From Eledone cirrhosa (taxonomy: Eukaryota): a stretch of 64,000 nt of DNA. The position numbers and the translations under genes are program-made. Below the pieces are notes generated by a model. The model ran no database searches. It saw nothing but the letters and a program-made list of their open reading frames with translations, and had not been told where the DNA came from. The stretch lies in contig OZ024742.1 in the NCBI GenBank assembly GCA_964016885.1, positions 130,138,001 to 130,202,000 on the forward strand, given 5' to 3'. Position 1 is the stretch's first letter; the number at the start of each line of letters is the position of its first letter. Below are positions 12,901-55,366 of this stretch, piece by piece.

Positions 12901-15393
12901 GGGTGGTGTGGGGGAGAGACAGTGGTGGTAGGGTGTTGTGGGGGAGAGACAGTGGTGGTAGGGTGTAGTGGAAGAGAGACAGTGGTGGTAGGGTGTTGTG
13001 GAACAGAGACAGTGGTGGTAGGGTGGTGTGGTAGAGAGACAGTGGTGGTAGGGTGGTGGAAGAGACAGTGGTGGTAGGGTGGTGTGGGGGAGAGACAGTG
13101 GTGGTAGGGTGTTGTGGGGGAGAGACAGTGGTGGCAGGGTGTTGTGGAAGAGAGACAGTGGTGGAAGGGTGTAATGGAAGAGAGGCAGTGGTGGCAGGGT
13201 GTTGTGGAAGAGAGACAGTGGTGGCAGGGTGTTGTGGAAGAGAGAGTGGTGGTAGAGTGGTGTGGAAGAGAGACAGTGGTGGTAGGGTGTAATGGAAGAG
13301 AGACAGTGATGGTAGGGTGTTGTGGGGAAGAGACATTGGTGGTAGGGTGGTGTGGAAGAGAGACAGTGGTGGTAGGGTGTTGTGGGGAAGAGACATTGGT
13401 GGTAGGGTGGTGTGGAAGAGAGACAGTGGTGGTAGGGTGTTGTGGAAGAGAGACATTGGTGGTAGGGTGGTGTGGGAGAGAGACAGTGGTGGTAGGGTGT
13501 TGTGGAAGAGAGACAGTGGTGGTAGGGTGTTGTGGGGGAGAGACAGTGGTGGCAGGGTGGTGTGGGGGATAGACAGTGGTGGTAGGGTGTTGTGGAAGAG
13601 AGACAGTGGTGGCAGGGTGGTGTGGGGGAGAGACAGTGGTGGTAGGGTGTTGTGGAAGAGAGACAGTGGTGGCAGGGTGGTGTGGGGGAGAGACAGTGGT
13701 GGTAGGGTGTTGTGGAAGAGAGACATTGGTGGTAGGGTGGTGTGGAAGAGAGACAGTGGTGGTAGGGTGGTGTGGAAGAGAGACAGTGGTGGTAGGGTGT
13801 TGTGGAAGAGAGACAGTGGTGGTAGGGTGTTGTGGGGGAGAGACAGTGGTGGCAGGGTGGTGTGGGGGAGAGACAGTGGTGGTAGGGTGTTGTGGAAGAG
13901 AGACAGTGGTGGCAGGGTGGTGTGGGGGAGAGACAGTGGTGGTAGGGTGTTGTGGAAGAGAGACATTGGTGGTAGGGTGGTGTGGAAGAGAGACATTGGT
14001 GGTAGGGTGGTGTGGAAGAGAGACAGTGGTGGTAGGGTGGTGGAAGAGACAGTGGTGGTAGGGTGTTGTGGAAGAGAGACAGTGGTGGTAGGGTGTTGTG
14101 GGGGAGAGACAGTGGTGGCAGGGTGGTGTGGGGGATAGACAGTGGTGGTAGGGTGTTGTGGAAGAGAGACAGTGGTGGCAGGGTGGTGTGGGGGAGAGAC
14201 AGTGGTGGTAGGGTGTTGTGGAAGAGAGACAGTGGTGGCAGGGTGGTGTGGGGGAGAGACAGTGGTGGTAGGGTGTTGTGGAAGAGAGACATTGGTGGTA
14301 GGGTGGTGTGGAAGAGAGACAGTGGTGGTAGGGTGGTGTGGAAGAGAGACAGTGGTGGTAGGGTGTTGTGGAAGAGAGACAGTGGTGGTAGGGTGTTGTG
14401 GGGGAGAGACAGTGGTGGCAGGGTGGTGTGGGGGAGAGACAGTGGTGGTAGGGTGTTGTGGAAGAGAGACAGTGGTGGCAGGGTGGTGTGGGGGAGAGAC
14501 AGTGGTGGTAGGGTGTTGTGGAAGAGAGACGGTGGTGGTAGGGTGTTATGGGGAAGAGACAGTGGTGGCAGGGTGTTGTGGAAGAGAGACAGGGGTGGTA
14601 AGGTGTTGTGGAAGAGAGACAGTGGTGGTAGGGTAGTGTAGAAGAGAGACAGGGGTGGTAGGGTGGTGTGGAAGAGAGACAGTGGTGGTAGGGTGTTGTG
14701 GAGGAGAGACAGTGGTGGTAGGGTAGTGTAGAATAGAGACAGGGGTGGTAGGGTGGTGTGGAAGAGAGACAGTGGTGGTAGGGTGTTGTGGAAGAGAGAC
14801 ATTGGTGGTAGGGTGGTGTGGAAGAGAGACAGTGGTGGTAGGGTGTTGTGGAAGAGAGACAGTGGTGGTAGGGTGTTGTGGGGGAGAGACAGTGGTGGTA
14901 GGGTGTTGTAGAAGAGAGACAGTGGTGGTAGGGTGTTGTAGAAGAGAGACAGTGGTGGTAGGGTGTTGTGGGGGAGAGACAGTGGTGGCAGGGTGGTGTG
15001 ATGGAGGGACAGGGGTGGTAGGGTGGTGTGGGGGAGAGACAGTGGTGGTAGGGTGTTGTGGAAGAGAGACAGTGGTGGCAGGGTGGTGTGGGGGAGAGAC
15101 AATGGTAGTAGGGTGTTGTGGGGGAGAGACAGTGGTGGTAGAGTGTTGTGGAAGAGAGACAGTGGTGGCAGGGTGGTGTGGGGGAGAGACAATGGTAGTA
15201 GGGTGTTGTGGGGGAGAGACAGTGGTGGTAGAGTGTTGTGGAAGAGAGACAGTGGTGGCAGGGTGGTGTGGGGGAGAGACAGTGGTGGTAGGGTGTAATG
15301 GAAGAGAGACAGTGGAGGCAGGGTGGTGTGGAAGAGAGACAGTGGTGGCAGGGTGGTGTAGGAGACAGTGGTGGTTGGGTGGTGTGGAAGAGA
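9910..15393. repeat. 30-bp G-rich minisatellite, ~180 copies (GGTAGGGTGTTGTGGAAGAGAGACAGTGGT)
   Basis: A 30-nt period is visible in the aligned rows. The long ORFs are its translation. Confidence 0.97.
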
Positions 15394-15834
15394 GAAAATG
15401 AATAAGATAGAAAGGAACCATCGATGATAACAGAAAAGGTGATGGTAGGGTATATTAAATTCTTTTATATCCTCATTTATAATTATCACGATGGGAGAAG
15501 AGAAGCAGAGTTATTAGGATGATAATAGGGAGGATTGAGTACAGACTGTCCCAATGTCATCCTTCATTACAGAAGTTACATGGTGTTGTTAATAGAGGAG
15601 TGAATGGGTGTCAGAGACATGAGTGGCTCAAACAGATCTGATACCATCCATATTTACATGGGCAGTATCTTCATGTTTAGATTATTGCCATCATATTCCG
15701 ATGATTGTTTACATAGTTAGATGGTTATTTTTAATTTTTAATGGTTGTTTTCAAATTCAAATGTGTGTTGCCAAATTTTTAAGTTATTTTTATATTTAGA
15801 TGGCAGCTTTCATTTATATAATTATTTCATATTT

Positions 15835-20864: not shown

Positions 20865-21708
20865 ATAGAGAAGTATAGAAGATATAGAGAGGTATAGAAA
20901 ATATAGAGAAGATAGAGAGATATAGAGAGGTATAGAGAGGTATAGAGAGGTATAGAGAAGATAGAGAGGTATAGAAGATATAGAGAGGTATAGAGAAGAT
21001 AGAGAAGATAGAGAGATATAGAGAGGTATAGAGAAGATAGAGAGGTATAGAAGATATAGAGAGGTATAGAGAGGTATAGAGAAGATAGAGAGGTATAGAA
21101 GAGATATAGAGAGGTATAGAAGAGATATAGAGAGGTATAGAAGAGATATAGAGAGGTATAGAAAGGTAGAGAAGATAGAGAGGTAGAGAAGATAGAGAGG
21201 TATAGAAGAGATATAGAGAGGTATAGAGAAGTATAGAGAAGATAGAGAGGTATAGAAGAGATATAGAGAGGTATAGAAGAGATATAGAGAGGTATAGAAA
21301 AGTAGAGAAGATAGAGAGGTAGAGAAGATAGAGAGGTATAGAAGAGATATAGAGAGGTATAGAAGAGATATAGAGAGGTATAGAGAAGATAGAGAGGTAT
21401 AGAGAGGTATAGAAGAGATATAGAGAGGTATAGAAGAGATATAGAGAGGTATAGAAGGTATAGAGAGGTATAGAAGAGATATAGAGAGGTATAGAGAGGT
21501 ATAGAAGAGATATAGACATGTATAGAAGGTATAGAGAGGTATAGAAGGTATAGAGAGGTATAGAGAGGTATAGAAGAGATATAGAGAAGTATAGAGAGGT
21601 ATAGAAGAGGTATAGAGGTATAGAAGAGATATAGAGAGGCATAGAAGAGATATAGAGATGTATAGAAGGTATGGAGAGGTATAGAAGAGATATAGAGAGG
21701 TATAGAGG
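20865..21708. repeat. Purine-rich AGAGGTATAG/AGAGATATAG satellite, left half
   Basis: The same satellite resumes at 35870, so it is interrupted by the LTR composite. Confidence 0.93.
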
Positions 21709-21975
21709 TAAAGAAAAATAATATATCGTCCAGGTGTATGAACGATATCTCATCTCTCTAAGATTATTAATTAAAACAGAAGGGCTTTACGATAACAAGG
21801 CTAATCTTTTTATTAAATGATACATTTAATAAAACACAACATAATAATTACATTCACAGGACATACCCTGCAAGCTAAACGGCAATGGCTTAATTCTTAC
21901 ATTCAAGAAGAGATATGAAAATCTCTTGGTCAAAAACAGGCGTTTTCCCAAAGTACGTCCACGTGGCAGGACAAA
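21709..21975 (-). repeat. LTR type B, left copy (truncated and fused to viral sequence)
   Basis: 21731-21975 matches 35466-35709. Its start TAAAGAAAAATAAT resembles the PBS-adjacent LTR end at 35180 (TAAAGGAAAATAAT). Confidence 0.75.
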
Positions 21976-24900
21976 ATGACTCCTTGTGAAACATAAGCTT
22001 ATAAAACTATTGAAGATATATTTCACAAGGAGTCATTTTCTTTGAATCCTTGGTTGGAAGATTTCGAAATCATTTCACCGGATGATGGAGAGAAGATTGT
22101 ACCAGTGTCTGCTGACTATAATTTGAACTCCCCACTCCTATTAGATGAAATGGAGGCTATATATACCTTCTGCATAATTGGAAGATTGGAAGAGCGATTT
22201 CTTCATAGGCCGAATATTACATTCACTTCAAATCGTCTATACATCTCAAAAAATACAGTTGACTTCAAAAATCCCATTAACAATCATTCCTGGTTGTCTC
22301 AATTCATTTACAATCCCGATAAGTTTACAACCACTGAAACTCCTGCATACGTCATGAGAGAGACAAAAAAATGGAGTGAGATATGCGGAGGGCTTGTAAG
22401 CACTTACTTCACTCACATAACAGGAACTCTGTTCCCCTGTCATAATCCTCACAGATTTGCCTGGCTCGATTATCCTAAAACTATAAGACGAGACATAAAT
22501 CACTACTACACAATGTTTTTCGAAATATACAGAATAATACTGATTATGAACACTGCAAGTCATGATGAGCTTGTCAACTTAAAAAACAAACATCTATTCA
22601 AAATTGAAATCTCCAGCTATAATTCTGAGACAAAAATGTTTCACAGCTTATTCACCACAGATCTCTTAGGAATTGTGGATATTTTCCCGGGTTACTGCTT
22701 TTTCCAGTTTTATGGAGTTTTATTAGACCGTAACATGATATTAATGGCTAAAGATACTCTTTTGGCCAGATTCACCTCGACATGGTGTGCACTAAATTCT
22801 AAAGAATTTGGATCTCATGAGCATTACAGGAAATTGTGTGAATTTTATAAGTCAGGTGATGCATTAATCACAAATCACGGAAATGCAGCATATAAGGGTT
22901 TGAAATTGTGGGAATCGCACTGTGTAGATTCCAAGGAAAAATTGGCTTCTGAAGTTGTTCCAGAAATCCCACCATTTGGGAAGTTCAATGATCACCTAAT
23001 AAAATCAAGAGAGAAGCTGACCAGCTTATATGGACAACAATTTATGATTTTCTTTGAGCCTTTGACTTACGTGAAAGTCCCTAGATTTCTGGCATTTTTG
23101 AGAGGGATCTTTAGACACTGGGCACATCCTTAAATTGATTACAAGGCAGGCCTTGAAAAGCTACATCATTATGTATCAGTCGACAAACGAACTGATGTGT
23201 ACTATGCAGCATCTAAAGCCAGTGAATTAACCTTTATAGTACTAGAGGCTCAATTTAAAATAAAAAAGAAATGGTTCATAGATGAACAAAGACTGCCACC
23301 CAATCACATCCTCAGACTGTATATTACTGATCAGAAATGGCCCAATGCCAGAGTATTGAAACAGTTGGAAGGAACTTGGCACACACTACCTCTAGTCCCT
23401 TGTTTTGAAATCCCTGCCCAAGTGGACATGAGCACTCTATACTCTGATAAGAGCTTCAGCATGACCAGATCAGAGATCATAAACTACATGAAAATACATC
23501 CCCACAGACCGATACCAACCAAGAAAGTGCTGGCGGAAGCTCTTTCCAAGCCGCAGCTCCATGTTAAGGATTTTCTTGAAAAGATAGAAACCGAAGGTAT
23601 AGATGAAGATCATTTAATTATAGGTCTAAAACCGAAAGAGAGGGAACTCAAAATAGAAGGGAGATATTTCGCTCTAATGAGTTGGCAATTACGAACATAT
23701 TTTGTATTAACAGAGTATCTTATGAAGGAGTTTTACCTTCCTTTGTTTTCAGAGATTACTATGAGAGACGATCTGATTAAACTGATAGGAAAGATGCAGA
23801 ACGTTTCTGGAGGACAGGGATCTAGAAACTATGAAACCATTACCATAACCAATCAGTTTGATTATGAAAAGTGGAACAATAATCAGCGTTTGGAATCCAA
23901 TGGACCTGTATTTCGTGTTATGGGGCAATTTTGGGTTTATCCTACTCTGATTTACAAGACTCATTTGTTTCTCCAACAATCACTTATCTATTTCAATTAC
24001 AGAGGAGATAAGCTTACAACAGATGGGGTCAACATTTTGTGTAGAGAAAACCACTGTTGCTGGTCTGATCAAAAAGGTGGTTTGGAAGGAATTAGACAAA
24101 AGGGATGGACCATCCTTTGTATCTTGATGATTTACGTTGAAAGCAGAATAAGAAATACTCATTCTAGTGCCTTAGGAGCTGGAGACAATCAGATAGTTAA
24201 TAATCATTATAAGTTGGAGAAAGGTTTATCCAGAGAGGAGCGTCTTACAGAAATCAATCATATTATTCAAAATAATGAAGCCATTTGTACGGCAATCAGA
24301 TCTGGAGCAGAAAAATTGGGGCTGCCTATAAATGATGACGAGACAGTCCAGAGTTCTCAATACTTGGAATATGGGAAAACTATTATTCAGAGGAAAAATG
24401 ATTCCCTCCCCCAGAAAAGTATACTCAAGGATATCGTGTTTATCTAATGATCAAATTACGAGCTTAGGGAATCTAATGTCATCACTGTCGACTGGAATTA
24501 TAACTCTCTGTCAGCATTCAGACACCATAAAAGACCCATTGTCCTGGTTTGTGATCTACGCCCCATGGATAATTGTTTTACTTTCGATTCATCACCCTCT
24601 ATTGCGGGATTCCTTCTTTGGTTGGCGTTTGAAGCAACTCAAATCGATCAGCAAGTCAAGAAATTACATGAATAAAGCTGAGATTTATGAAGACTCAAAG
24701 ATGTTTGGTCAAAGTCTTAGATTTATGATTAGAGGAATTTTTTTGGCTCCCTCTTTGGGTGGAGTTTGTGGAATGGCCCCCTCCAGACTTTTAATACGTG
24801 GATTTCCCCATCCTGTGACAGAGTCATTACACTTTTGGAAAGTGATCCATGACAGTCACCCGGACCCTTTAATTAAAAAAATAGCCTTAGACTGAGGAAA

Positions 24901-26884
24901 CCCATCTATCGGTGGACCAGAAAGTCGAGATATCCTTCTTTTAATAGAACAGCCAACATCTCTCAATCTGAGAAGAGGGGTCAGTTCTGAAAGCATTTTG
25001 AGAAAGACAGTTCATAAAGGTCTTGTGGAGAATCTAGATAAAATTAAGAATGAGCTTTTTAGAGAAGCACTCATTGCAGACACAGCAGATGGGTCTTTTG
25101 TAACTAACTTTCTATCATCCATAAAACCGATTTTCCCAAAGTTTTTATCCGAGATGTTTAATGCTACTTTTCCGGGATTAATGACGTCTTTTGTTAAAAT
25201 GTATGAGAATTCTCGATCAATTAGACAACATTTCTCGTCTAAAGTGAGCAAAGAACTAGCTAGAAAATTCACCGATGCAGAGGGGGCCAGCCCCTTGAAT
25301 CTCAATAAATTTATAACACCCGGGAGCATATGGAACTGCTCCTCAATCTACGTACAAAGATTGAGAGAAAGATCATGGGGAGAAATTGTCGGAACAACAG
25401 TACCATTTCCAGGAGAAATGTTCAATGCACCTTCTGAGGCTACCAAAGATCATAAAGACTGCAACGAGCATGTCCCTGACACATTTATAACTGTGGTGAC
25501 CCCTCAAGGACTCGACACAGAATATGAAAAAGCAGGTAACAAGGCCGCCTATTTAGGATCCAAAACCACCGAGTGCACTGGAATTTATCAACCATGGGAA
25601 AAGACAACAGAAGTTTCTTTCCTCCAACGAGCTTCCAAGTTACGAGACACTATCAACTGGTTTGTTCACAAAGATTCTATGTTAGCCAAAGCGATTTTTG
25701 AGATCTTGAAATCCCTAACAGGAGGAAACTGGACTGAAAGCTTCCCATGTTTTGAGCTCAAACCCTTCTTTTCAGATGGCTCTGAATCATCCGAACTATA
25801 TCAGGTTGATAAGAACTCAACCTCACAGGGTACCTCCATCTTACCCTCCTACAGATCTTGAACAGGCTAAAATATTATTCGCTTACATGATGAAATCATG
25901 GATATCAGGAAAAAGCAAGGCCCATAAACTGTCGAACAAAGATCTGTGGGTATTTTCAGACTTTGACACCATTGAAGTTGTAAGTAATTTTTTGATCTTA
26001 AAGCAAATGTATGATTTACTGATAACTCAAAAGACAGGACCCTCTATTAAAAAGAAAATCAGAGAATTAAAACAATTGCATATAAGCATAGACAATCGAA
26101 AGCAAAGCACAGAATTGAATTCTTTTAAGAAAGCTATGTTTTCTTTGACCAGACTAAAACATAATTCTTATATCAAAAGAGTGGACAAAGAGATCAGATT
26201 TTCGGCTAAACAAATGCCTGTTCTTCCACCCCTGAATCCAGTATCCCTCAACAAGTGGGGTGAGGAAATAACATTCCCTATAGAGTCCAGTGATTTCATT
26301 TTCCACTCAGTCCTATGACATCGAGTAAAGGATTCACCAGTGCTGTAGAAAAGTATATAACCCCTCCGTATCTGGAACCAGATTGGCCCAATTAGCAACA
26401 GGATCTCATTATAAATTAAGATCAATTATGGTCAGTAAAAGCATCACATTCTCTGGAGCGATATTCGCCGCTGATGGTTCTGGAGGGGGGTGCGCTGCAG
26501 GCCTCAGACATCAGTCGGAGGCTTCTGTTGTTTTCAATAGCTTTCTCGATTTATCTAATACAACCCTTAAGGGTAGCAAGCTGCCACCTCCCATGGCGAT
26601 AGTGGACATGAGCACTCTATACTCTGATAAGAGCTTCAGCATGACCAGATCAGAGATCATAAACTACATGAAAAAACATCCCCACAGACCGATACCAACC
26701 AAGAAAGTGCTGGCGGAAGCTCTTTCCAAGCCGCAGCTCCATGTTAAGGATTTTCTTGAAAAGATAGAAACCGAAGGTATAGATGAAGATCATTTAATTA
26801 TAGGTCTAAAACATCTAAAGCCAGTGAATTAACCTTTATAGTACTAGAGGCTCAATTTAAAATAAAAAAGAAATGGTTCATAGA
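21976..26884 (+). pseudogene. L: Endogenous rhabdovirus-like (Mononegavirales) L protein gene: RdRp, partial PRNTase, connector and partial MTase; disrupted
   Basis: Collinear motifs matching VSV-like L as I recall it: ADYNLNSPL, FRHWAHP, IIGLKPKERELKIEGRYFALMSW, DYEKWNNNQR (motif A), GGLEGIRQKGWT (B), GDNQ (C), GTTVP, AYLGSKT (GxxT), PHRVPPSYP, QLATGSHYKLRSI and ADGSGG. In-frame stops at 23131, 24893 and 26316, frameshifts near 24378 and 26320-26350, and a deletion near 25756. Confidence 0.95.
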
Positions 26885-27094
26885 GGAACCAGAAGTTGTA
26901 AATTGGTGCAAGAAAAATTCCTGTAATATATAACAATGAAGCCAAAGCCTTACAAGGTACTCTTTACAAGTTGTTGAAACCGGTTTCAAAACGAACAATA
27001 TAGAGGTGAAATAGGTTAATGCATGCAAGCATTACACAAAAAATATACAACAAATGCAATAATTATACACATGCAGCAATAAATGCAAAAAGCA

Positions 27095-27350
27095 TTAAAA
27101 ATACGATAGGCATTGAAAATGCCATAGGCAGTAAGGTTACAAAATGCAATGAAAAATTATAATATGCCTTAAAAATACGATAGGCATTGAAAATGCCATA
27201 GGCAGTAAGGTTACAAAATGCAATGAAAAATTATAATATGCCTTAAAAATACGATAGGCATTGAAAATGCCATAGGCAGTAAGGTTACAAAATTCAATGA
27301 AAAATTATAATATGCCTTAAAAATACCAAAGGCAGTCAGGGTACAAAATG
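27095..27350. repeat. 74-bp tandem repeat, ~3.4 copies, between Gypsy pol and the viral insert
   Basis: TTAAAAATACGATAGGCATTGAAAATGCCATAGG... starts at 27095, 27169 and 27243, with a partial copy at 27317. Confidence 0.9.
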
Positions 27351-27408
27351 CAACAACAAATTCAATATACAGTAAAAATAGCTGCAAGAAAAAAGAATAC
27401 AATTCAGT

Positions 27409-30010
27409 TTATATTACTGCATAGCATACGGGGCCAATGCACCCTTCGCCCAGAACGGGTCGTAGTTCTGTGTGTTGATGTGGGAGGGGGAGAAGAAATA
27501 GGCGTATGTGGCAAAGAAAAGAAGGGGGCATTTGAGTTTCAAGTGTCATTGTGTCATTGTCCAGGTTTGCTAGTTTGAGACGATCAACGGAAACCGTTTC
27601 CCTGGAACCCCGAATGTCCAGTGTGAAATGTTTGTCTGTGTGAGCAAGCACACGATAGGGTCCAGAGTACGGCCGTTGAAGAGGGTGTCTCACGGCGTCG
27701 TCTCTAACGAACACATGTGTCCACAAGGCAATATCACTTGGGACGGCAGTTTTTACAGTTTGCTTCCTAGTGCCCATCGGTGGTAGCTCTTTGAAGTAAG
27801 AGTGGAGCCGGGACACGTAGGAAGCGGGGTCCTGCGAAGTGAGGTCAAAAGGGGCCAGCATTTGCCCCGGTAACGTCAGAGGAGTACCATAAACTAATTC
27901 GGCAGAGGAGAACCCAAGGTCCACCTTTACCGTCGACCGGATGCCTAGCAACACCACAGGCAGGTACTCGCTCCAACGTGATGAGTCCATGGAAGCCCTT
28001 GAGGAGGCTTTGAGCTGTCTGTGGAATCTTTCCACCATTCCGTTCGAGGCTGGGTGGTAAGCCGTGGTTCTTATTCGAGTAGCCCCCATGATTTGGGCTA
28101 ATTCTCGGAAGAGTTTAGACTCGAATTGACGACCACGATCCGTTGTGATGGTGGTTGGTACACCGAAGCGCGCGATCCATGAAGATACTAGAGTACGAGC
28201 TGTGGTTTCAGCGGTGATATCTGTTATAGGAACGGCTTCAAGCCAACGCGAAAAACGATCGACGATCGTCAAAAGACACGAAAAACCACGACTAACCGGC
28301 CACGGGCCGACGATGTCCACGTGAATGTGTTGAAATCTTGCATCCGGGCAGGTGAAGGTTCCGAGAGGAGCCTTAACATGTTTATGAATTTTCGCTTGTT
28401 GGCAAGCGACACAGGACCGACACGAAGCAGTAATGTCACGTCTCACATCCGGCCAGAAAAATCTGGCTGTTATGAGTTTTACTGAGGCTGATACTCCTGG
28501 GTGAGAAATACCATGTAAAGCGAGAAAAACAGTTCGTCGGTGTTCCACTGGGACTAGGGGCCGTGGTGAGTCCAATGAAACATCACGCAGTATTTGTCCA
28601 TCTGCCGTTGAGATCGGAATGTACTTCAATGTACAATTTTTAAACTCCGGCGATGCAACATCCAACAATTCGAGAGTGGGTTGAGCAGCCGCCATTCGAT
28701 GTAAATCTATCTCCTCGGAAGACGAAATCGATGCTATCGGGAGGCGAGACAGCGCGTCGGCCGCTGTATTCGAAGAACCCGGAATATGTTGGATGTTGCT
28801 CGTGAACTGTGATATGTAGTCCAGGTGTCGCGTCTCTCTGGGCGAGTATTTGTCTGCTTTAGTTCGAAGAGCAAACGTCAAGGGTTTATGATCAGTGAAA
28901 ATGGTGAACGTTCTACCTTCAAGTACATGAGCAAAGTGTTTCACTGATAAATAGATTGCTAATAGCTCCCTTCCGAAGGTGCTATAGCGGGTTTCGGCAG
29001 GCTTTAACTTTCTCGAAAAGAACTCGAGTGGTTGCAGTAACCCATCACACTTCTGTTGTAAAATTGCGCCTACCGCGCAATCGGAAGCCTCAACACAGAG
29101 CGACAGCCCGGCGTTGGGCTTGGGGTGGGCGAGTAAAGAAGCAGTCGCCAATGCTTTTTTTACTTTCTCAAAATCCGCCAGTTGCATTGGACTTAATGAA
29201 ATGTTCATATTCTTCCGTCGGCATTTTTTAAAAATTTCTGTCAACGAGGACAGTAAGCTGGAACAATTAGGCACGAATCGCCTATAAAAATTCACAAGGC
29301 CTAAGAATTGCCGTAATTGTCGAAGCGAACCTGGTGGAGGCAAATCCGAAATTGCCATAACTTTCTCCGGAAGTGGCCGAATACCATCTGCATCAATAAG
29401 ATGGCCCAAAAATGTTAGTGATGTTGAGCCGAAAATGCACTTAGAAGCATTAATACGAACACTGTATTTCTGTAAACGGCGAAATAGGGTATCCAGATGT
29501 TTGGAATGTTCGGGAGAAGAACTAGCAATCAGTACATCATCGATATAAGTGTAGACAAAATCGAGACCACGAGTGACATCATCCATGAATCGTTGGAAGG
29601 TACTTGCAGCATTTCTAAGTCCGAAAGGCATAGTGAGGAACTCGAATGCTCCGAAAGGAGTGGCAATAGCAGTCTTAGGAATATCGTCCTTGTTAACCGG
29701 GATTTGATTATAAGCGCGGACCAAATCAAGCTTCGAAAAGATCTCGCACCCCTGCAATGACGATGCGAAATCCTGCAAATGCGGGATTGGGTAACGGTCG
29801 GGCACAGTAATTGCGTTTAGACGCCGGTAATCGCCCGTCGGTCTCCAATCACCCGAATGTTTGCGTACCATATGCAGAGGGGACGCCCAAGGGCTTGTGG
29901 AACGCCGGATTATTCCCAAGTCCAGCATGTGGTCGAACTCGGACCGTGCAGCCCTTAACTTCTCAGTAGATAATCGTCGAGGACGTGAAACAACGGGTGG
30001 TCCTGTAGTC
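27409..30010 (-). CDS. pol: Ty3/Gypsy pol (RT, RNase H, integrase); open frame interrupted upstream by the hAT insertion
   Basis: [39 protein letters not shown], RNase H RELLAIY/TDHKPL, HHCC zinc finger (H..SHPG...CVACQ), integrase [16 protein letters not shown], and terminal [11 protein letters not shown] in an adjacent frame. Confidence 0.95.
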
Positions 30011-33000
30011 CAGTGGTCGCCAACCTTTCTAAAACCGAGGAACCCTCTAAATATTTTGAATTCTTCACGAAACCTATACAATACAAAACTTTTCAAAAAA
30101 AAATAATAAAGTATTTATTTATTTTAGTGTTTCATGCGTGTGTATGTAATCGAACACAATGAACTAGTGGCTTTTCTGCTGTTGCCCCTCATCAGTGAGT
30201 TTAGAAAATCGAGGGTCAACACTAGTTAATGCCAGTCTCATACACTCGTCAATTGCTGACAGTTTATTCATCTTCTTTGTGCTGATTTCTACCAACTGCG
30301 AAAACCCTTTTTCGCACAAGTAGCTAGATGGGAATAAAGTCAAATATTTCAATGCAAGTTGGCTGATTTCATTAAACTACCCAATCAAGAATAAGTCGAT
30401 CCATAGTTCTTTCTTTCTGCTTTCGAATATCACTTTCAGGTCTTCGTTTGAATTCAAATCCATCAACTGATGTAAGCATTGTGCAGGTAGTAAATTTTTA
30501 CAATTTCCAGCGTCATTTTCTGACATTAACTGCTCGATTTCGGTGAACGGGTTTTTATCCATAAATTTCCGCTAACAATATTTTTTTCCATCAAGTCAAA
30601 ATAATCTGAAAAACTCGTGGAAAGCACATTTAAATGAGAAAGAATAATCTTCTTTAGATTGTTGGAGTCAAAATCTTCTCTCTTTTTAAGCTCTATTTCA
30701 AGGTTTGAAAGTAATGAGTAATTGTCCGATTCAATTCTTTGTATAAAGATGTTTAATTTTGATTGAAAATATGTAATAAAATTGATTGAAGTAAAAAATC
30801 TGCATTGTTACCCTGAAACACTTATTTAGTTTGTTCAGTTCACCAAAAATGTCTACTAAATAGGTTTCTAATACACTTGCTCTTTCATCATTCTGTTTTT
30901 TTTTAGAAAAACTATTATTTCTTCTCTCAGTTCAAAATCTCTCTTCATAGCATCCCCAAAAGACAGCCAACACACATCATTGTTCAATAACAATCTATTA
31001 TAATTACTTCCAGAAGATTCACAAATAGATTCAAACATTCTAGAATTTTTTGCTCTTGCATGGATCAAATTGATAATTTTGACAATCTTTCAGCTGGTCA
31101 TTTAATATTTGAGCATCTCAGTCTTTGAATTTTTTTGAACACAAAACCTCTCGATGAATCATACAATGATTTGAAATACAATTTGGGGTCTGTTCTTTAA
31201 TTTTTGCATTCAAACCAGAATTTTTACCAGTCATTGCAGCTGCTCCATCTGTTGTTATTGAAGCCAACTTGCTCCAAGATACACCATTTTTTAAAAAATA
31301 CTCTTCAATTTTATTGAATATATCTTGACCTTTAGTTGTGATGTCTAATGCCAGACAAAACAAATACTCTTCTACTAATTCTTTTTTATCAAGGTCTACA
31401 AACCGTACATAGCAAATTAATTGATCCTTGTTATTAATATCCGTAGTTTCGTCCACTTGCAGACCAAAACATGTGCTTTTCTTTAGTGCGCAGTTAGTAT
31501 CTTATTTTCTATATCAGAAGAAATATCAATTATCCTTCTTTTTACGGTATTTGCTGACAATGGTAACTGGCTTAATTTTTCTTTGTCCTTAATACTGCAG
31601 CTTTCAAAAAGATTCTCTGTAGCAATTTTTATACTTGGCAGAATTAACTGTTCTCCTAATGTAAATGGTTTCTTGTTTTTACCAACCAAATGTGAAATTT
31701 CAAAAGATGTTCTTGTTAAAGCTTTATTTCTATCTGACTTTTTACAAAACAAGTCATACATATTAGCTTGTGATTTTTTGATGTTGTTTGATGTAAAGTA
31801 TTCCAGTGACTTGTTTTTATCATTGGTGTGATTAGTATCAAGGTGTCTTTTAAGTTTTGCAGGATTTAAACAGCTATTTGATAGAACTTTTGAACATAGC
31901 AAATACATGGGCTGATCTGGTGTATCTTTTTTAGTGTCAGCTTTTTGAAATCCATATCTAACATAATCATCACACCACTGTCTAACCTTACTGCTGGTAT
32001 CTAACTTCAGCTTCTTTGCAGTAGACATCATATCAATGTTATTTATCTACAGTTAACATTTTTAATATGACATTAATAAACAAGAGAAATTAAGTTTTTT
32101 TTTATTACAAAAAGTACTTAAATTAACTTTAATTTTAGATATTTGGAAAAACTTAACTAGTTAAAAAAAAATTTTAATTTTAAAAAATTGAAATTTCTCC
32201 ATTTTAGGATGGCAAACATATTATTTAAAGTCTTATAATAATATTAAAATATTAGGGGTTACTGAAAAAGGTGCAAATTTATAAACAACTAGAAGAAATT
32301 TTTTTCAGAGTCCAGCACTTCCTGCATATACTACTTTAGGGTCGTATTAAATATTATTGGTAATATAAATATATTTAAATATCCGCCATACTAAAAGGTG
32401 CAAAAAATGAAAATCAGCTGTTAGTGTAGAAAATGTGACGATGGTATTGGAAATTAATTCAGATATCTTCTATCTATTTTGACTCAAAGTTAGATATAAT
32501 ATAAGAAGGCTTTAGGCTGCGTTAAACATATTAGATTGGAACAAATAAAGTTTAGTCAAATGTTTGTGAACATATATATTTATTATATAAAGTAATTTCT
32601 CAATTGTGAATGCAGATGTCATCAAATGAATACATAATTGTGTGGCAAAGTTTATAGTGTATGCATGGAATACAAAATTACCTTTGTTAGTAGTCGAAAC
32701 TTTACAGGCGTTATATTTTCTGTGCAAAGTACAACAGAATGTAACGTATTCTTATTTAGAATTGTCTGTGGAACTGGATGCATGTTGAAAACGACTAGTA
32801 AGCGAGTTCACTCTGAGGAAACTTTAGGCGACTTTAAAGCTTTTGTGAGGACAGCAGATTAAAACGTGTTCTCTATTGAAAACATTCTACTGAACTTACG
32901 TTGTGAGAACAGCGAACTGATCCTGTCTCTCGGCTGAAAGACCTCGCTGAACTGAAGTTTTCAGTTTAAAGTTATGCTGTCATCGACCAACATTTACTTG

Positions 33001-33335
33001 TTCGTGATTGGTCAATTTCTAAGTTCAATTAGTAGTAGTCAAATTCTCGGAATTCAGAAAACTATGTCTTTCCAAGAATTGATGTGAAATTGAAAGTATT
33101 CAATTTCCACGAATCTCAGAACAGTGTTTTTCTGCTAATTCAAGTGAGAAACTGAAAGTAGTGTTTTCCACGAATTGGAGTGGAGAACCTGTGTACAATA
33201 GTACTCGTTCATTTATACATTTGGCATTTTCTTTGCACCTTTTTCAGAAAACCCAAAATATTAATGGTAATGTAAATATTTATTTTTTTAAGGAACCCGG
33301 AGTTTGTTTTACGGAACCCATGTTGGCGACCACTG
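30011..33335 (-). mobile_element. hAT (Buster/Charlie-type) DNA transposon with both termini, nested in Gypsy pol
   Basis: 14-bp perfect TIRs CAGTGGTCGCCAAC (30011-30024 / 33322-33335) and an 8-bp TSD CTGTAGTC (30003-30010 / 33336-33343) with central TA. Confidence 0.97.
30164..32031 (-). pseudogene. hAT/Buster transposase (ZBED5/SCAND3-like), frameshifted
   Basis: YVRYGF...CSKVLSNSCLNPAKLKRHL, KKPFTLGEQLILP, LSANTVKRRI, DETTD, TTDGAAAMTG, HCMIHRE and FPSSYLCEKGFS, spread across broken ORFs. Confidence 0.92.
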
Positions 33336-34800
33336 CTGTAGTCGATATGAAGTGTTCAATCGCATGTTCCGGGCTAGTAATTCGTAACTTTCCCTGCGTC
33401 AACTGAGGGAATGAATGTAACAGGCTTTGATACTGGTTGCCCACTTCAGCCAAGAAAAAGGAAGGGCTGACAGTGGCGACCTCCGGCTCTGAACCCTCGA
33501 AAAAAAGGCCTGTTTCAGCATCAAAAAGGCGTTGTCTGCGGATGTCCACCGACAAGGAAAAATGGTGTAGAAAATCCGCTCCCAAAATGGCGTATGGCAA
33601 GTCGGCGATAGTAAACGTCCACTTCAATTCACGACGCAAATTTTTTAACCGAAGAGGAAGCAAAACTTGCCCGTACGTTCGAATGGCCGTGTGGTTGACT
33701 GCTCGTTAATTTATATTTGATTCAGATGGGTTTTTTTTTTTAAATAACTGACTGGCCAAATACTCAGCGACGCGCCAGTATCGACAAGGAAACATTTTTT
33801 CGACCGCAGGTCGTATACGAAAAGATGGCGGTTCGGTCGATTTTCCCAGAGTTCACTAACCGCCCCTAGTGGCTCTGCTTTGCATTTTCCGATCTCTTGT
33901 AATTACAGGGCGTGCGACAACGTTGTGCCCTACTGCCGAAGTTAGCATGATACCAACAAAACGAAGAATTATTGTTGTCTGCGTTGTAGTGCTAGCGATG
34001 AATATAAGACGGCGGCGAACGGTACTCGTAGCGGTTTCAAGGAATAGCAGACGGAGGCGAACGGTACTCGTAGCGGTTTCAAGGAATAGCAGACGGAGGC
34101 GAACGGTACCTCAAACGTTGAGAAGCCTCTCTGTGTTGTACGGTCAAATCCTCTCCACTTTTTGGGTGAGCGCTTCGATCATCTCCAACAGTTTGCTGTC
34201 GGCCACAGAAGAAGAAGCCACACAAGGATTATGCCGACTGCTGTTAGAGTCCACCTCTAGTATTCTATCCGCGGATGCGGCAAGTTGATCTAACGATTCC
34301 CTCTCCAAATTATTGACCAAGACCATCTGCGCACTTGGCGGTAAACGAGAGAAAAATAGTTGTTTGAGGAATGGGGTGTCCATCCCCTGGGAGTCGCTCA
34401 ATTCCCGCAGATGTCGCAAATAGGAGCTTGGCGTCCTGTCACCCATTTGCGCATCATCTAACAATTCCCGAAAACGACTTTCCGCTGACTTGGTATTCCT
34501 CCGAATAATTTCCCCTTTCAACGAGCCATTAGTCTGCGGCTAAATTGGTTACCACATCCTTCACGGAATATGCCAACGACACAGGCAAGCCACTAACTAG
34601 TACCTTCAGTTTATGCTGTTCTTTGGTTTTGGTTAAATCAAAATAGCATTCAAGCTGCAAAAACCATAACTTGATGTCGCCTGCGAAGGACGGCAAATGA
34701 TGAGATTCATGATTGCCGAAGAATCTCCCAGGACGAACTATGTCTTTGAAGCAGCCACTCGACCAAAAGTCCACACTGGAACTCCGAAATCCGTTCACGC
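33336..34800 (-). pseudogene. gag: Ty3/Gypsy gag and protease (frameshifted)
   Basis: LPSFAGDIKLWFLQLECYF, MGDRTPSSYLRHL, Cys/His knuckle CWYHANFGSRAQRCRTPC (~33900-33958), protease FLVDTGASLS (~33762-33792) and ILGADFL. Rejoins pol as HFISTT|[11 protein letters not shown] once the hAT is removed. Confidence 0.9.
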
Positions 34801-35149
34801 GAATTCAATCGAAATCAGTAGAAGAGTCCAAGGAATAAAAAAAAAAAAAAATGCTTTTTGGTGAAGACGCCGTCACGTGGCACGATGCAGCCAATCAGAT
34901 TGCTTGGATTGAAGGAGATACACTGTGCGCGGGAAAACCGCACAAGGAAGAAGACACGCAGAATAGCGGGAAAATGTCGGCCATTTAAAAAATTATCATG
35001 AGGAAATGACGGTGAAAATTCAGGAAAGAAAAAAATGTTTACAGTGTGAACAGCGAACAGAGTTTAGAAATCATCTAATTTTTTTGGGGGGGAAAGGTTT
35101 GGATTTAAACCAAAGAGAAAAGAAAAAAAATTTTTTTCTTTTAGTGTCC

Positions 35150-35178
35150 GCGTATTGGAATCACGTCGTCGGTCACCA
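35150..35178 (-). promoter_or_regulatory. Primer-binding site, tRNA-Trp type
   Basis: Minus strand TGGTGACCGACGACGTGATTCC lies one base from the LTR end. The plus strand ATCACGTCGTCGGTCACCA resembles the animal tRNA-Trp 3' end ATCACGTCGGGGTCACCA. Confidence 0.8.
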
Positions 35179-35179
35179 A

Positions 35180-35467
35180 TAAAGGAAAATAATGTTTGTC
35201 GGTGAATGGACAATTCATCGTTTCTCTTTGTATGAATAAATGACTCCAGAAAGGGGGTGAACAATCAAAAATTAACGATCCTTTATTAAGAAAAAGCGTA
35301 ATATATTCTCCGGTGCAGGAATAAGCGAATCCTTTATCGTCTGTTCGTGTTCGCGGTTCGTGAGAAAGATCCTGGTGAGTGACCGGATGTATCTTGCCCC
35401 GCGCTCTCTGAAAAATCATTCAGGGGAGGCAACTGCTAGTTGCTAAGCGACCATCTCAGTCACTACA
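35180..35467 (-). repeat. LTR type A (5' LTR of the gag-pol element; no partner copy in the window)
   Basis: The minus strand begins TGTAGTGACTG and ends ...CCTTTA directly before the PBS. Confidence 0.7.
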
Positions 35468-35869
35468 GGTGTATGAACGATATCTCATCTCTCTAAGATT
35501 ATTAATTAAAACAGAAGGGCTTTACGATAACAAGGCTAATCTTTTTATTAAATGATACATTTAATAAAACACAACATAATAATTACATTCACAGGACATA
35601 CCTGCAAGCTAAACGGCAATGGCTTAATTCTTACATTCAAGAAGAGATATGAAAATCTCTTGGTCAAAAACAGGCGTTTTCACAAAGTACGTCCACGTGG
35701 CAGGACAAAGGCGACTGGAATGAAAAACCAAATCTCTTGAGTTTTACATTGGCGTCTCTTCTTTTAGAGAACGCCGAGATAAGGGAAGTGATTCGCTATT
35801 TTTTGGTGTTACCCACAGGTGGCGACACTGCGTTGCTATAGTCAACACACTATCGCCATAGTTACTACA
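35466..35869 (-). repeat. LTR type B, right copy
   Basis: The minus strand begins TGTAGTAACT. 35466-35709 is duplicated at 21731-21975, and the copy is followed by GAGG and satellite. Confidence 0.75.
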
Positions 35870-37575
35870 GAGGTATAGAAAAGTATAGAAGAGATATAGA
35901 GAGGTATAGAAGAGATATAGAGAGGTATAGAAGAGGTATAGAGAGGTATAGAAGAGGTATAGAGAGGTATAGAGATGTATAGAAGAGATATAGAGAGGTA
36001 TAGAAGAGATATAGAGAGGTATAGAAGAAACAGAGAGGTATAGAAGATATAGAGAGGTATAGAAGAGATATAAAAGGTATAGAAGAGATATAGAGGAGTA
36101 TAGAAGAGATATAGAGAAGTATAGAGAGGTATAGAAGAGATATAGAGAGGTATAGAAGGTTTAGAGAGGTATAGAAGGTATAGAGAGGTATAGAAGAGAT
36201 ATAGAGAGGTATAGAAGAGATATAGAGAGGTATAGAAGATATATAGAGAGGTATAAAAGAGATATAGAGAGGTATAGAAGAGATATAGAGAGGTATAGAA
36301 GAGATATAGAGGTATAGAGAGGTATAGAAGAGATATAGAGGTATAGAAAAGTATAGAAGAGATATAGAGAGGTATAGAAGAGATAGAGTGGTATAGGAGA
36401 TATAGAGAGGGGATATACAAATGAAGGGAGCAAATATATAGTAAAAGAGAGAATGGGGATAAGAGAGGAGAGGGGGCATAGAATATAGATAAATGAAAGA
36501 GAGAGGGTGTGAGAAAGATAAAGTAAGAGAAAGTGTAGGAGAGATAGGGGAAGAGTGTAGAATATAGATGGGAAAAGATAAAGTAAGAGAAAGAGTAAAA
36601 GAAAAATAGAGAGAGGCGAGATAAAGAAATTAAAGGGAGCAGAGGGGGGAGAGACAGAGAGAGAGAGAGAGACAGAGAGAGTGAGAGACAGGGAGAGAGA
36701 GAGGGGGAGACAGACAGAGAGACAGACAGACAGGCAGACAGAGAGAGAGCGAGAGATGGAGACAGACAGAGAGAGAGAGAGATGCAGAAATGGGGGGGGG
36801 AGAAGAAAGCAACAAAAAAAGTAAAGAAAAATAGAATGAGGTAGTGGTGCAAGTGAAAGAGGGGGGGGGGGGGCAAAAAAGCTGAAAAGAGAGTGGGTTG
36901 TAGAAATGGAAAGGAACAGAATGTAGATAGAGTGAGAGGGGGAGAGTCCAAAGGAAGATAAGAGTGGGAGACAAAGGGGAGTGAAATAGGAAAAAAAAAC
37001 AAAGAGAGATGCAGAGAGAGAGGAAGTAGAAGAGAGAGAGAGAGAGGGGGAGAGAGAGAACGAGGAAGTAGAAGAGAGATGTAGAGAGAGATGACGGGGG
37101 TAGGGTGAGAGAAAGAGAGGGTAGAAAAGAGATGCAGAGAGAGAGGGGAGAGAGAGAGAGAGGGGGAGAGGTAGACAGCATAAAAATTGAGTTAAATAGA
37201 CAATAGAGAAAATAAAGAAAAAATGATGTGAAGAGTGAAGAAAGGAAGAGAGAGGGAGCAAGGGAGATATATGATGAGAGGAAAGGAGAGGTAGAGGAAA
37301 GGAGAGATAGAGGAAAGGAGAGGTAGAGGAAAGGAGAGGTAGAGGAAAGGAGAAGTAGAGGAAAGGAGAGGTAGAGGAAAGGAGGGGTAGAGGAAAGGAG
37401 AGATAGAGGAAAGGAGAGGTAGAGGAAAGGAGGGGTAGAGGAAAGGAGGGGTAGCGGAAAGGAGGGATAGAGGAAAGGAGAGGTAGAGGAAAGGAGGGGT
37501 AGAGGGATAGAGGAAACGAGAGGTAGAGGAAGGGAGGGGTAGAGGAAAAGAGGGATAGAGGAAAGAGAAAAGAAA
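35870..37575. repeat. Purine-rich satellite (right half), then GA-rich low-complexity sequence
   Basis: AGAGGTATAG units, then (GA)n and GGAAAGGAGAGGTAGA units. Confidence 0.93.
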
Positions 37576-43477: not shown

Positions 43478-44755
43478 CAGGGTGTGGACGATATTTGTTC
43501 GCAATTTTCAACTGCTAATTTTATGCAAATTTTTTTTACTTCCGTTGTAACTCTTGTCTTCATAAAAACAGTGACTATATTTCCATTATTTATTTTCAGA
43601 ATAATTGATTATGAATAATTTTGAACCTCCAAATTTGTGGAAGAGACACAGAGTTCTTCTTGGAATCCAAGCCAGGAGGACAAATAAGGAAATTTCAGAC
43701 TTTCTCAGTGTCAGCAGGAGAATGGTGGAAAAGGTCAGAAAGGAATTGAAAGATTCAGGATTCGACTACGAAGCAACATCAGAGAGGAAAACACATGATC
43801 GACGATCTGACGCCTTCAGAACGCCCGACTTCGTCGCTGAAGTTCAGGATATCATCAATAATGAACCTAGCAAGTCGATGCATGCCATTGCAAGGGAGAA
43901 AGGCGTGGATGAAAAGCTCATTAGGCTGGTGGTACATGAAGACATTCGCTACGTTTCATACAAGATGAAGAAAGGACAATTTCTGTCAAAGGCGATGCAA
44001 GAAAAGCGACTGAAGCACGCAAAGGAGCTGATCAACAAGTTGAAACACCCACTAGAGTCAGACATGCTGTGGTTTTTCTCCGACGAGAAAAACTTCTGCC
44101 AAGACCAAAAGATCAACTCCCAGAACAACAGGTGGCTCACTGTCTCATCCAAAGATGTTCCCAGAGTCATGCGGACAAAGTTTCCAGCAACAACATTGGT
44201 CTTAGGTGTCGTCAGCAGTCAAGGTGACGTCATACCACTTCACTTCTTCCCTGAGGGCCTCAAGCTGAACACCGATGGCTACATCCACGTTCTGAGCGAG
44301 GTAGTAAAGCCCAGGTAGCTGTAGGTAGGCTGTACGTGTAGCAGCAAGACTCAGCGCCCTGCATACCAGCCGAAAGACCCAAGCCTGGCTGTCAGAGAAC
44401 TTCGTCGACCACACTTCACTTGACATCTGGCCTCCCAGCTCGCCTGACTGCAACCCCCTCGACTTCTTTGTGTGGGGCGCAGTGGAACGAGACACCAACA
44501 GATCTAGCTGCAATACGAAAGACGATCTGAAGGGCACGATCACAAGTTGGGGGACAGTGACGAAGACCTGTAGCCGGTTCCGAGGCCGACTTGAGGCCGT
44601 CATCAAAACCAATGGCGGGTTTATCGAGTGAGATCGAAAGAACAAGTCATGAAGACAAATTGACCCAAGTTTGATAAATATATCTTAAAAAATAAAAGTA
44701 GTGTGTTATTTTTTCCTAGACAGTAATCTTGCAAACAAATATCGTCCGCACCCTG
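43478..44755 (+). mobile_element. Tc1/mariner superfamily, maT (DD37D) transposon with a defective transposase
   Basis: 27-bp TIRs CAGGGTG(T/C)GGACGATATTTGTT(C/T)GCAA flanked by TA. WFFSDEKNF, then QQD-(37 aa counted)-D in WPPSSPDCNPLDFFVWG. Stops and a frameshift near 44316-44341. Confidence 0.93.
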
Positions 44756-54503: not shown

Positions 54504-55366
54504 ATCTTTTTCTATGATTGGTTTAAGGGATATTTGTCAGCTATTTCCATCATGTTAAATAGTAACAGAGAAATTCCTTCATAGGCTTAAAGCTATGTTA
54601 AACAGGCTAGCCTATCGGGTCTACTACTCAAATATTATTACTTTTTTGCTGTCCTAACATTTACCCCAGCTTTAGTGTAGAATACACATTCATAAATATT
54701 GATGTGACTGAGATGTTATTCCATTTGATCCAATGATCCATCTGATATTAGAGTCCTACCACCCTTAGCTGGGTTCCTAAGGTCAATTAGAAGGGCCGTC
54801 CAACCCAATACACTCTATAAAATGGTTGGTGATAGGAAGGACATTCAACCAAAGAAAATTTGCCATACAAAGGGTTAAAAGGATTCTTCAGTTGTGTCAA
54901 GGACATGACAACCTCTCTAGTGCTTGTGTCACATTAATGAAACCAGGAAACACTGTAATGTGTAAATGTATGTAAATGAGGTGAAGGCCCCCAGCCTATC
55001 TGTGAGGTCAGTAGCATTTATTTATTAAGTAATGACTAGGTCTGTGGTGACATTCAATCCTTGCTAGCAGGGATAACAGACATTATATGAGGATACTTTC
55101 TAACATAGGCTACAAGGTCTAACATAGGCTAAAAGGTCACAAATTTGAGGATATGCATGTTGTAAGTCAATCATATTAAGCCCATCATTTGTCTGGTTCC
55201 ATTTTATCAATTTTGTGAGAAAGCAGAATTTGAACTCTAAATGTAAAGGGATGTTACAAAATGCTTCCATGGTATTGTTTAATGCTCTACCAATTCTACT
55301 AATCCACCACTTTCCAGTCAATATATCCGTTGCTCTACTCATTTTCCCAATCCAGTAATTTGAAGC

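Follow-up and report, generated by a model that had tools for sequence, protein, structure and literature searches.

Antisense rhabdovirus polymerase sequence inside a Ty3/Gypsy-type retrotransposon of Eledone cirrhosa and its probable capture during reverse transcription

Recombinant cDNA that joins lymphocytic choriomeningitis virus (LCMV) to the intracisternal A particle (IAP) element was reportedly described in mouse by Geuking et al. in 2009, and rhabdoviruses are said to occur in cephalopod transcriptomes, going by the title of a 2023 paper. Endogenous viral elements (EVEs) derived from RNA viruses often lie near long terminal repeat (LTR) elements and chimeric cDNA has been seen in infected cells; insertion of such cDNA into the germline by integrase has mostly been assumed. 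According to the relevant section of a review, the LCMV-IAP recombinants unite a non-retroviral RNA virus with an LTR element and are integrated, they are somatic and experimental, and no endogenous LCMV element is known (PMC3205384). For an EVE of cell fusing agent virus (CFAV), the section devoted to it gives no target duplication and no placement of a junction relative to the polypurine tract (PPT) or to R (PMC6797480). This study concerns a 64,000-nucleotide stretch of Eledone cirrhosa DNA (assembly GCA_964016885.1, contig OZ024742.1, forward-strand positions 130,138,001 to 130,202,000; hereafter the window), in which a unit at 21709-35869 carries part of a rhabdovirus L (polymerase) gene inside an LTR retroelement.

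The window unit splits one GA-rich satellite. The viral L lies on the plus strand and the retroelement on the minus strand, so L is antisense to the element. Read from the element's own 5' end, the order is LTR of family B, LTR of family A, primer-binding site (PBS), gag, protease and a hAT insertion, followed by a frame for reverse transcriptase (RT), RNase H and integrase, a B-type 3' untranslated region (UTR), the insert of viral origin and finally 267 bp from the end of LTR-B (Table 1). The original prediction, made from this DNA alone, had placed L between a Gypsy pol and an LTR segment. This is confirmed with the refinement that about 520 bp of 3' UTR separate pol from the insert and that L runs antisense. 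Capture by template switching during reverse transcription, followed by insertion by integrase, is the probable origin of this arrangement and is held here with fairly high confidence.

The insert is a piece of about 4.9 kb of rhabdovirus L that is broken and single-copy in the assembly. Six frames within 21997-26832 match Mononegavirales L families of Pfam in the correct order (PF00946, up to 406 bits, PF14318, PF21080 and PF14314), with the domain order RdRp-capping-connector-methyltransferase and a GDN motif visible in the alignment. The best match among solved structures was the L protein of vesicular stomatitis virus (VSV) at 460 bits, followed by a second at 364 bits and 31 others at 44 bits or less. 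The profile search of the region 21976-26884 that had been proposed therefore bears out the assignment to a rhabdovirus-type L. The top of 221 full-length matches were sigma-, vesiculo- and ledanteviruses at 50-52% identity, and all named matches among the best 120 were rhabdoviruses or unclassified mononegaviruses. Identity of the core to Alpharhabdovirinae-type relatives was 45-53%, with none above 53%, and the N-terminal part matched full-length relatives at about 24-37%. Protein searches found no close viral relative of L and the viral_contigs collection gave no related L; a quick tree of 62 rows placed the window L on a long branch inside no supported group or genus. The gene carries stops at 23131 and 24893 and frame changes near 24390 and 26220-26350, has lost about 230 residues near 25745 and lacks its last ~400 residues. 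Two internal pieces of L occur a second time and make up the final 289 bp of the insert, with 1 difference in 281 positions to their sources. No other viral gene is present at the window locus, and the glycoprotein family PF00974 had no match in the genome (G000), in which controls likewise gave none. The window L is an endogenous fragment and not a virus, and nothing here corresponds to a complete gene in an N-P-M-G-L genome.

At its left end L is fused to the LTR exactly at 21975/21976, the place at which a PPT and the start of the 3' LTR were expected. Searching for LTR-B elements free of L yielded 10 intact sister elements, and in comparison to these 207 bp are missing from the window copy, made up of 160 bp of the LTR and a 47-bp stretch with the PPT; the retained 3' LTR starts at LTR position 161. 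Each of the 10 sister LTRs has a TATA-like word at LTR position 122 and an initiator-like word whose A is at 154, and AATAAA follows near 322. LTR family F, otherwise unalike, has the same two words 34 nt apart versus 32 in B, and such a pair arose in 10 of 200 shuffles. On the basis of these motifs, the left junction is predicted to lie about 7 nt past the transcription start, at the predicted U3/R boundary. If transcription does start at 154, the LTR piece that was kept would be R+U5 minus 7 nt, which is the length of minus-strand strong-stop DNA. The junction itself consists of a 3-nt overlap, a 19-nt inverted copy of 22021-22039 and then AACAT, and its hairpin has z = -8.4, with 0 of 200 shuffles as stable. 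A perfect 10-bp palindrome at window 21993-22002 sits in the loop of this hairpin. The AACAT word is 41 codons upstream of the first conserved L motif, where the median is 42 residues in 111 of 120 relatives; lyssavirus mRNAs all start with AACAB, AACAU among them, according to a section of PMC6631705.

The right boundary had been placed at 26885. A junction of virus and element is present there, but it is not sharp and consists of an 11-nt patch (26879-26889) common to the virus and the element's 3' UTR. The element's 11-mer agrees with L in at least 9 of 11 letters at 1 of 4615 places, which is the source of the junction, and the right junction is homology-guided. The original prediction had named a target duplication or poly(A) belonging to L as the marks of an independent insertion into a pre-existing element, and both were looked for. 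The interval 21976-26889 contains neither a run of 8 or more A nor a gene-end motif, and L has no target duplication of its own, its flanks showing the 207-bp deletion. Independent LINE-type insertion of L, as for a bornavirus-type processed pseudogene, was rejected on these grounds. A different possibility is repair after integration, in which a B element inserted normally and a later break near the PPT was patched with viral sequence with loss of the 207 bp, either through reverse transcription of viral RNA primed at the broken end or through end-joining of fragments of viral cDNA. The intact 5' LTR is explained in this way without extra steps, and the fold-back, the overlaps of 1-3 nt and the templated duplications fit end-joining. 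However, repair offers no reason for the deletion to take the PPT and to stop about 7 nt past the predicted start, and it is judged unlikely.

The outer ends of the unit are those of an inserted element. GAGG is present on both sides of the unit (21705-21708 and 35870-35873), as had been noted together with the single interrupted satellite, and it matches the family's 4-bp signature. None of 1379 satellite positions has an adjacent 4-mer repeat, and the satellite joint left after one GAGG is removed occurs 3 times in the satellite, with 0 occurrences of the alternative joint. Because two random satellite 4-mers agree by chance 7% of the time, the target duplication is credible but on its own not overwhelming. 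The LTR-B pieces at 21731-21975 and 35466-35709, which had been estimated as about 99% identical, are 99.2% alike, with 1 substitution and one 1-bp indel over 245 bp. When about 27 distinct LTR copies were compared, the two were mutual nearest neighbours, with 2 changes between them versus at least 3 to the nearest other copies. This pairing bears on the idea that RT produced a UTR-L-R-U5 cDNA which then took the place of a resident element's 3' end through homologous recombination, with no integrase acting on the chimera. The GAGG duplication would then belong to the older element, and the A/B mosaic described below could have arisen likewise. Such recombination retains the RT-type junctions and is helped by the A-like/B-like crossover near 27380, with long homology arms on both sides. 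However, the LTR-B pair are nearest to each other with one private change each, and donors at other loci would typically differ by 7-13 changes, though the margin over the closest subfamily is thin. Replacement by cDNA recombination is regarded as quite improbable.

The physical continuity of the locus was checked in 4 of 7 sequencing runs. In run X1, which may be the assembly's own source, a 1323-nt contig covers 21917-23239 without difference and so bridges 21975 with 59 nt of LTR, another contig passes 26600 by 30 nt, and read depth about doubles across the duplicated L pieces. Spanning of the junctions by DNA reads, which had been proposed as a check, was thus obtained for the left junction, and the right one is not among the contig pieces listed. 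Restriction-site-associated DNA (RAD) reads from two other samples of a second study fall inside L (X5 in 7 of 26 bins, X6 in 1 of 26), and the viral sequence is therefore shared between individuals. In run X4, whose kind is not on record, one 166-nt contig lies inside L at depth 5.3 with no depth on the multi-copy LTR; this may mean transcription, and as a single contig of unknown strand it was not counted. No RNA data set was listed as containing the stretch, which says nothing about expression. An artefact of assembly, or a contaminating viral sequence fused to a repeat, could be argued from the possible identity of X1 with the assembly source, from the right junction being absent among the listed contigs and from no X5 or X6 read being listed across a junction. 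However, the bridging contig, the doubled depth, the RAD reads of other samples and the stops in L all speak against it, and rhabdoviruses have no DNA stage. An artefact is hardly credible.

The strongest new evidence for capture by the element's copying step is its recurrence. Twelve rhabdovirus loci were examined, 4 with L and 8 with the N gene, all from profile searches, and both counts are floors (at least 4 and at least 8). Seven of the 12 lie antisense inside related LTR elements that have the clade's TGTAG start and PPT type, and the LTR types differ: B at the window, A at L116, D at L109 and L111, E at L110, F at L113 and a D-type interior at L115. Even at an assumed 10% genome occupancy by such elements, 7 of 12 has P = 5e-5. 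Duplications of 4 bp are present at four of them (window, L109, L111 and L116). The last three share the order of a complete 3' LTR, PPT, UTR, N and, of the 5' LTR, its U3 side alone; gag-pol is wholly replaced while the outer ends and the 4-bp duplications are intact. At L116 the A-run at the viral gene end merges with an A-run of the LTR, where 181 bp from the U3 side of the 5' LTR are kept. Both junctions are identical between L109 and L111, whereas flanks and duplications differ. Their N sequences differ at 35 of 1072 sites, of which 23 are third positions (P 9e-5) and 16 are synonymous (P 0.006); the pair may reflect twin capture or the spread of one hybrid. The L fusion of the window is itself single-copy; a search for further fusions of LTR-B and L, which had been suggested, found no second copy in the assembly. 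Repair after integration gives no reason for 7 of 12 loci to fall in one element clade, nor for the replacement of whole gag-pol regions between intact outer ends. It does gain from the long flanking duplication of L110 and from the C27 locus (L039), which is similarly scrambled without an LTR partner. The virus behind the L pieces of L039 is a related one, about 77% identical in DNA and differing chiefly at third positions, and the pieces adjoin an apparent LINE terminus that is truncated on its 5' side and has an (ATG)n tail, presumably of an RTE LINE.

Several observations weigh against capture during reverse transcription. The transcription start of LTR-B is predicted from motifs, and some sister LTRs have a second TATA-like word at 186. 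The sole viral gene junction preserved elsewhere in the genome, at L110, starts with AACTC and not AACAT. This same locus is flanked by a 102-bp direct repeat and not by a 4-bp one, and because its insert spans the viral gene junction, at least this capture used a template that was not monocistronic, perhaps without integrase. Five of the 12 loci do not fit: L114 is the sole counter-example to the antisense pattern, C27 has a LINE-like partner, and L067, L068 and L112 have either no LTR link or one that cannot be made out. The antisense bias is weak alone (6 of 7 independent cases, P = 0.06). At the window, the right junction at 26889 is not among the 10 contig pieces listed (18 further pieces exist). 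The duplication and the LTR identity date the element and not the capture, and would look the same after later repair; fold-backs and short overlaps are also typical of end-joining. Additionally, the A/B mosaic needs extra events, in whatever order.

The order of steps, the enzymes and the template proposed here are those which the anatomy, the junction sequences, the duplication, the single copy and the recurrence suggest. In standard LTR reverse transcription both LTRs take their U3 from the PPT-primed strand. A single minus-strand switch on one RNA was rejected since it would leave the 5' LTR without the complete U3 that is seen, and a plus-strand switch or a second RNA is therefore needed. 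The chimeric cDNA would have formed in a CsRn1-type particle in a rhabdovirus-infected germ cell, and its insertion by integrase would have made it a germline fossil. Plus-strand synthesis from the normal 5' LTR toward the PPT would have stalled 47 nt before the 3' LTR and jumped via the 11-nt patch onto co-packaged L RNA. Three further skips within that RNA (two re-copied pieces and one deletion) may have followed, with run-off at the mRNA start, a fold-back of about 17-19 nt and a join by the 3-nt overlap to the free end of minus-strand strong-stop DNA (R+U5). Alternatively, strong-stop DNA may have switched to a defective viral genome of the copy-back kind and come back to the element's RNA at the patch, with the particle's second RNA supplying U3. 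Fold-back geometry and the boundary at the gene start tip the balance slightly toward the plus-strand path over the defective-genome path, every step of either being conjectural. The latter path stays alive because L110 spans a gene junction and because of the data on defective genomes in the relevant part of PMC5857290. By either path both outer ends would be normal, and integrase would insert the unit into the satellite, duplicating 4 bp of target. The LTR, gag and pol of family A would have entered by nested insertion and recombination near the end of pol, or by more switching, and the hAT insertion would have come last. The prediction that RT switched onto viral RNA and that integrase inserted the product in the germline remains the best-supported account, given the junction at the predicted U3/R boundary, the homology-guided right end and the sister chimeras, though its mechanism is still reconstructed from the product. 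One simple switch does not account for the intact 5' LTR, and the prediction needs amending also for the coding part, which stems from a second LTR family and holds a hAT insertion.

The host retroelement appears to be a CsRn1-type Ty3/Gypsy element, judging from four features: a tRNA-Trp PBS, a CHCC gag knuckle, a 4-bp duplication and the domain order. A PBS pattern built on a sister element falls in host tRNA-Trp(CCA) genes (11 of 12 tRNAs called, in two clusters), three other matches to the pattern have no tRNA, and the window PBS departs from the pattern by a short change. Large tandem clusters rich in tRNA-Trp(CCA), the element's primer type, are seen at G000:C4:277.40-277.44M and 353.39-353.49M. 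The CX2HX9CX3C (CHCC) knuckle is present in the window copy and in 20 of 32 sister loci, most sister elements that have both LTRs show 4-bp repeats that can be read, with one mismatch in two of them, and the order is PR-RT-RH-IN with no env. The nearest named proteins of pol come from flatworms, a pseudoscorpion, Octopus sinensis and a sea cucumber, and none is labelled by clade.

The window copy is a mosaic. Its UTR is B-like and its gag and pol are A/C-like, with the change near 27380; pol thus belongs to an LTR family other than that of the two matching LTR-B ends, and the assembly has the A/B LTR joint only once. Nested insertion plus recombination, or further switching, may have brought in the A-family parts. 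Sister elements (L027-L036, L057-L066 and L082-L093) combine gag and pol segments of different LTR families, so recombination among families is frequent, and some copies with B LTRs have gag 95-100% like that of the window. The A-to-B crossover of the window and the UTR/N junction of L116 lie within about 70 nt of each other at the end of pol (window 27380-27451), perhaps a switching hot spot. The 3.3-kb element within pol has an 8-bp duplication (30003-30010 and 33336-33343), DUF4371 and at least 40 relatives, and terminal inverted repeats (TIRs) together with this duplication suggest the hAT label.

The LTR pair (1 substitution in 244) and the re-copied L (1 in 281) show similarly low divergence. 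As co-born pairs they give 2 differences in 525 sites, which corresponds to 0.4-1.9 Myr (bounds 0.05-7) at assumed rates of 1-5e-9 per site per year, an age with which the presence of two stops in L is consistent (P = 0.07 for the point estimate and 0.48 for the upper bound). A mobile vehicle for viral sequence had also been considered possible. The window copy is inert and its mobility is ruled out, because the PPT and 3' U3 are lost, gag is broken, a hAT element sits in pol and the copy is single; the only hint of mobility comes from a different chimera, which carries N. The inferred cephalopod host agrees with a genome that encodes molluscan hemocyanin; the window itself contains no host gene of taxonomic use, and the Atlas pointed weakly to Mollusca. 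Multi-unit hemocyanin loci are at G000:C1:173.7-173.9M, C26:21.9-22.0M and C27:0.06M. For one unit the score is 650 bits with chain 4yd9_C and 639 bits with 1js8_A, which are presumably squid and octopus hemocyanin, compared to 453 bits with the next single unit.

Table 1. Positions of the parts of the window unit (window coordinates) and of the other rhabdovirus loci in the genome.
Feature	Position	Strand
Left satellite half, GA-rich, ending in GAGG 21705-21708	20865..21708	
3' LTR remnant, family B, LTR position 161 to end, predicted R+U5 only	21709..21975	-
19-nt perfect inverted copy of 22021-22039 (fold-back), first 3 nt common to LTR	21973..21991	
Rhabdovirus L, antisense to element, start at candidate gene-start AACAT	21990..26600	+
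Re-copy of L 23421-23632, 1 difference in 212	26601..26812	+
Re-copy of L 23210-23287, includes 11-nt patch 26879-26889	26812..26889	+
3' UTR, B type, with 74-bp tandem repeat	26890..27408	-
pol: RT, RNase H and integrase, single open frame, nearest A/C-family copies	27409..30010	-
hAT-type DNA transposon (label inferred) within pol, TIRs and 8-bp duplication	30011..33335	-
Protease (DTG motif) and broken gag with CHCC knuckle	33336..34900	-
Primer-binding site, tRNA-Trp type	35159..35178	-
Short LTR of family A, complete, exact 5' end joined into LTR-B	35180..35467	-
5' LTR of family B, U3 complete, last ~22 bp gone	35466..35869	-
GAGG duplication 35870-35873 and right satellite half	35870..36410	
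L116/L063: LTR-A, PPT, UTR and most of N antisense, no gag-pol, duplication AGCG	G000:C2:55886117-55888321	
L109: LTR-D/N hybrid, duplication TATA (low-complexity)	G000:C4:337.138M	
L111: LTR-D/N hybrid, duplication GTTC	G000:C5:74.853M	
L110: LTR-E, PPT-like tract, UTR, antisense N through viral gene junction into next gene	G000:C2:47.050M	
L113: N fragment antisense, non-autonomous F-type element, outer end cut by other insertion	G000:C2:46.934M	
L115: N fragment antisense, D-type non-autonomous, tandemly duplicated, nested C-family element	G000:C28:117.485M	
L114: N with gene-end A-run, same sense as upstream PBS and D-type internal piece	G000:C5:61.194M	
L039 (C27 locus): scrambled L pieces, both orientations, between inverted tandem arrays	G000:C27:16.994-16.998M	
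L067: older decayed L or N fragment, no LTR link seen	G000:C23:16.22M	
L068: older decayed L or N fragment, LTR remnants 2-3 kb away	G000:C3:37.50M	
L112: older decayed L or N fragment, no LTR link seen	G000:C1:314.57M	

Elsewhere in the window, satellite occupies 9917-15395 and 55363-64000, with about 183 copies of a 30-bp unit and about 160 copies of a 54-bp unit at 96%, and the long open frames in these satellites are repeat artefacts. A non-LTR RT fragment followed by a PHD-finger frame lies at 49876-51285, and a weak Tc1-like transposase remnant at 43605-44318.

The mechanism suggested by these data is known from mouse and insects, and a repeated, base-resolved germline record of it in a mollusc is new in the literature searched. 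In that literature no rhabdovirus EVE of a cephalopod was described within an LTR element, most subscription papers lying outside the search. The value of the record is that junctions can be read against the PPT, the U3/R boundary and the target duplication at up to seven loci and in five LTR types of one genome. The loci also record an unclassified rhabdovirus lineage that reached the germline of a mollusc repeatedly. A wider and rather doubtful proposal is that CsRn1-type elements constitute a recurring antisense capture-and-archive system for rhabdoviruses, with at least one hybrid spread as a unit and a heritable antiviral memory. If this is true, several LTR families would copy viral RNA antisense behind their own U3 or promoter, and integrase would file the hybrids in the germline. 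The hybrid of LTR-D and N (L109, L111) would have spread with its viral part under constraint or refreshed from circulating virus, and the cassettes would give antisense small RNAs, an antiviral memory outside arthropods.

Both partners of the chimera resemble described groups. The window L shares the domain order and GDN motif of Alpharhabdovirinae-type L proteins (sigma-, vesiculo-, ledante- and spriviviruses) but lies on a long branch in no supported genus. The element resembles CsRn1, PwRn1 and AgCR, as described in part of PMC2582038, in its tRNA-Trp PBS, CHCC knuckle, 4-bp duplication, PR-RT-RH-IN order and length class of 5-6 kb; no viral cargo is mentioned for that clade in the same part, and the window copy differs also as an A/B mosaic with a hAT insertion. 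Among chimeras, the Anakin element (Pao with a chuvirus glycoprotein), in the section of PMC7642597 that covers it, likewise has a gene of a negative-strand virus within LTR boundaries. However, its capture is a putatively functional envelope in hundreds of copies, and a functional capture of that type was rejected for the window L, which is antisense, broken, single and without the PPT. The CFAV EVE of the Aag2 genome is also an RNA-virus piece flanked by a Ty3/gypsy LTR and gag, but it is described as sitting in a piRNA cluster (PMC6797480, section on this EVE), whereas the loci reported here are dispersed. Like the LCMV-IAP recombinants in the review section cited above, the window unit joins an RNA virus without its own RT to an LTR element and is integrated; it differs in being in the germline, decayed with age and bounded by target duplications. 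The closest likeness in junction structure is to the virus-LTR viral DNA (vDNA) of Drosophila and Aedes, for which the relevant sections report short-overlap copy-choice junctions, opposite orientation and discontinuous viral pieces that resemble defective genomes (PMC5857290, PMC6797480). Short-overlap junctions of virus and element and a discontinuous virus, the traits of chimeric cDNA, were both found at the window, and the junction position and the recurrence suggest dependence on the element's RT. Those insect forms are episomal or circular in infected cells, whereas the unit reported here is an integrated linear one with both element ends, in a mollusc.

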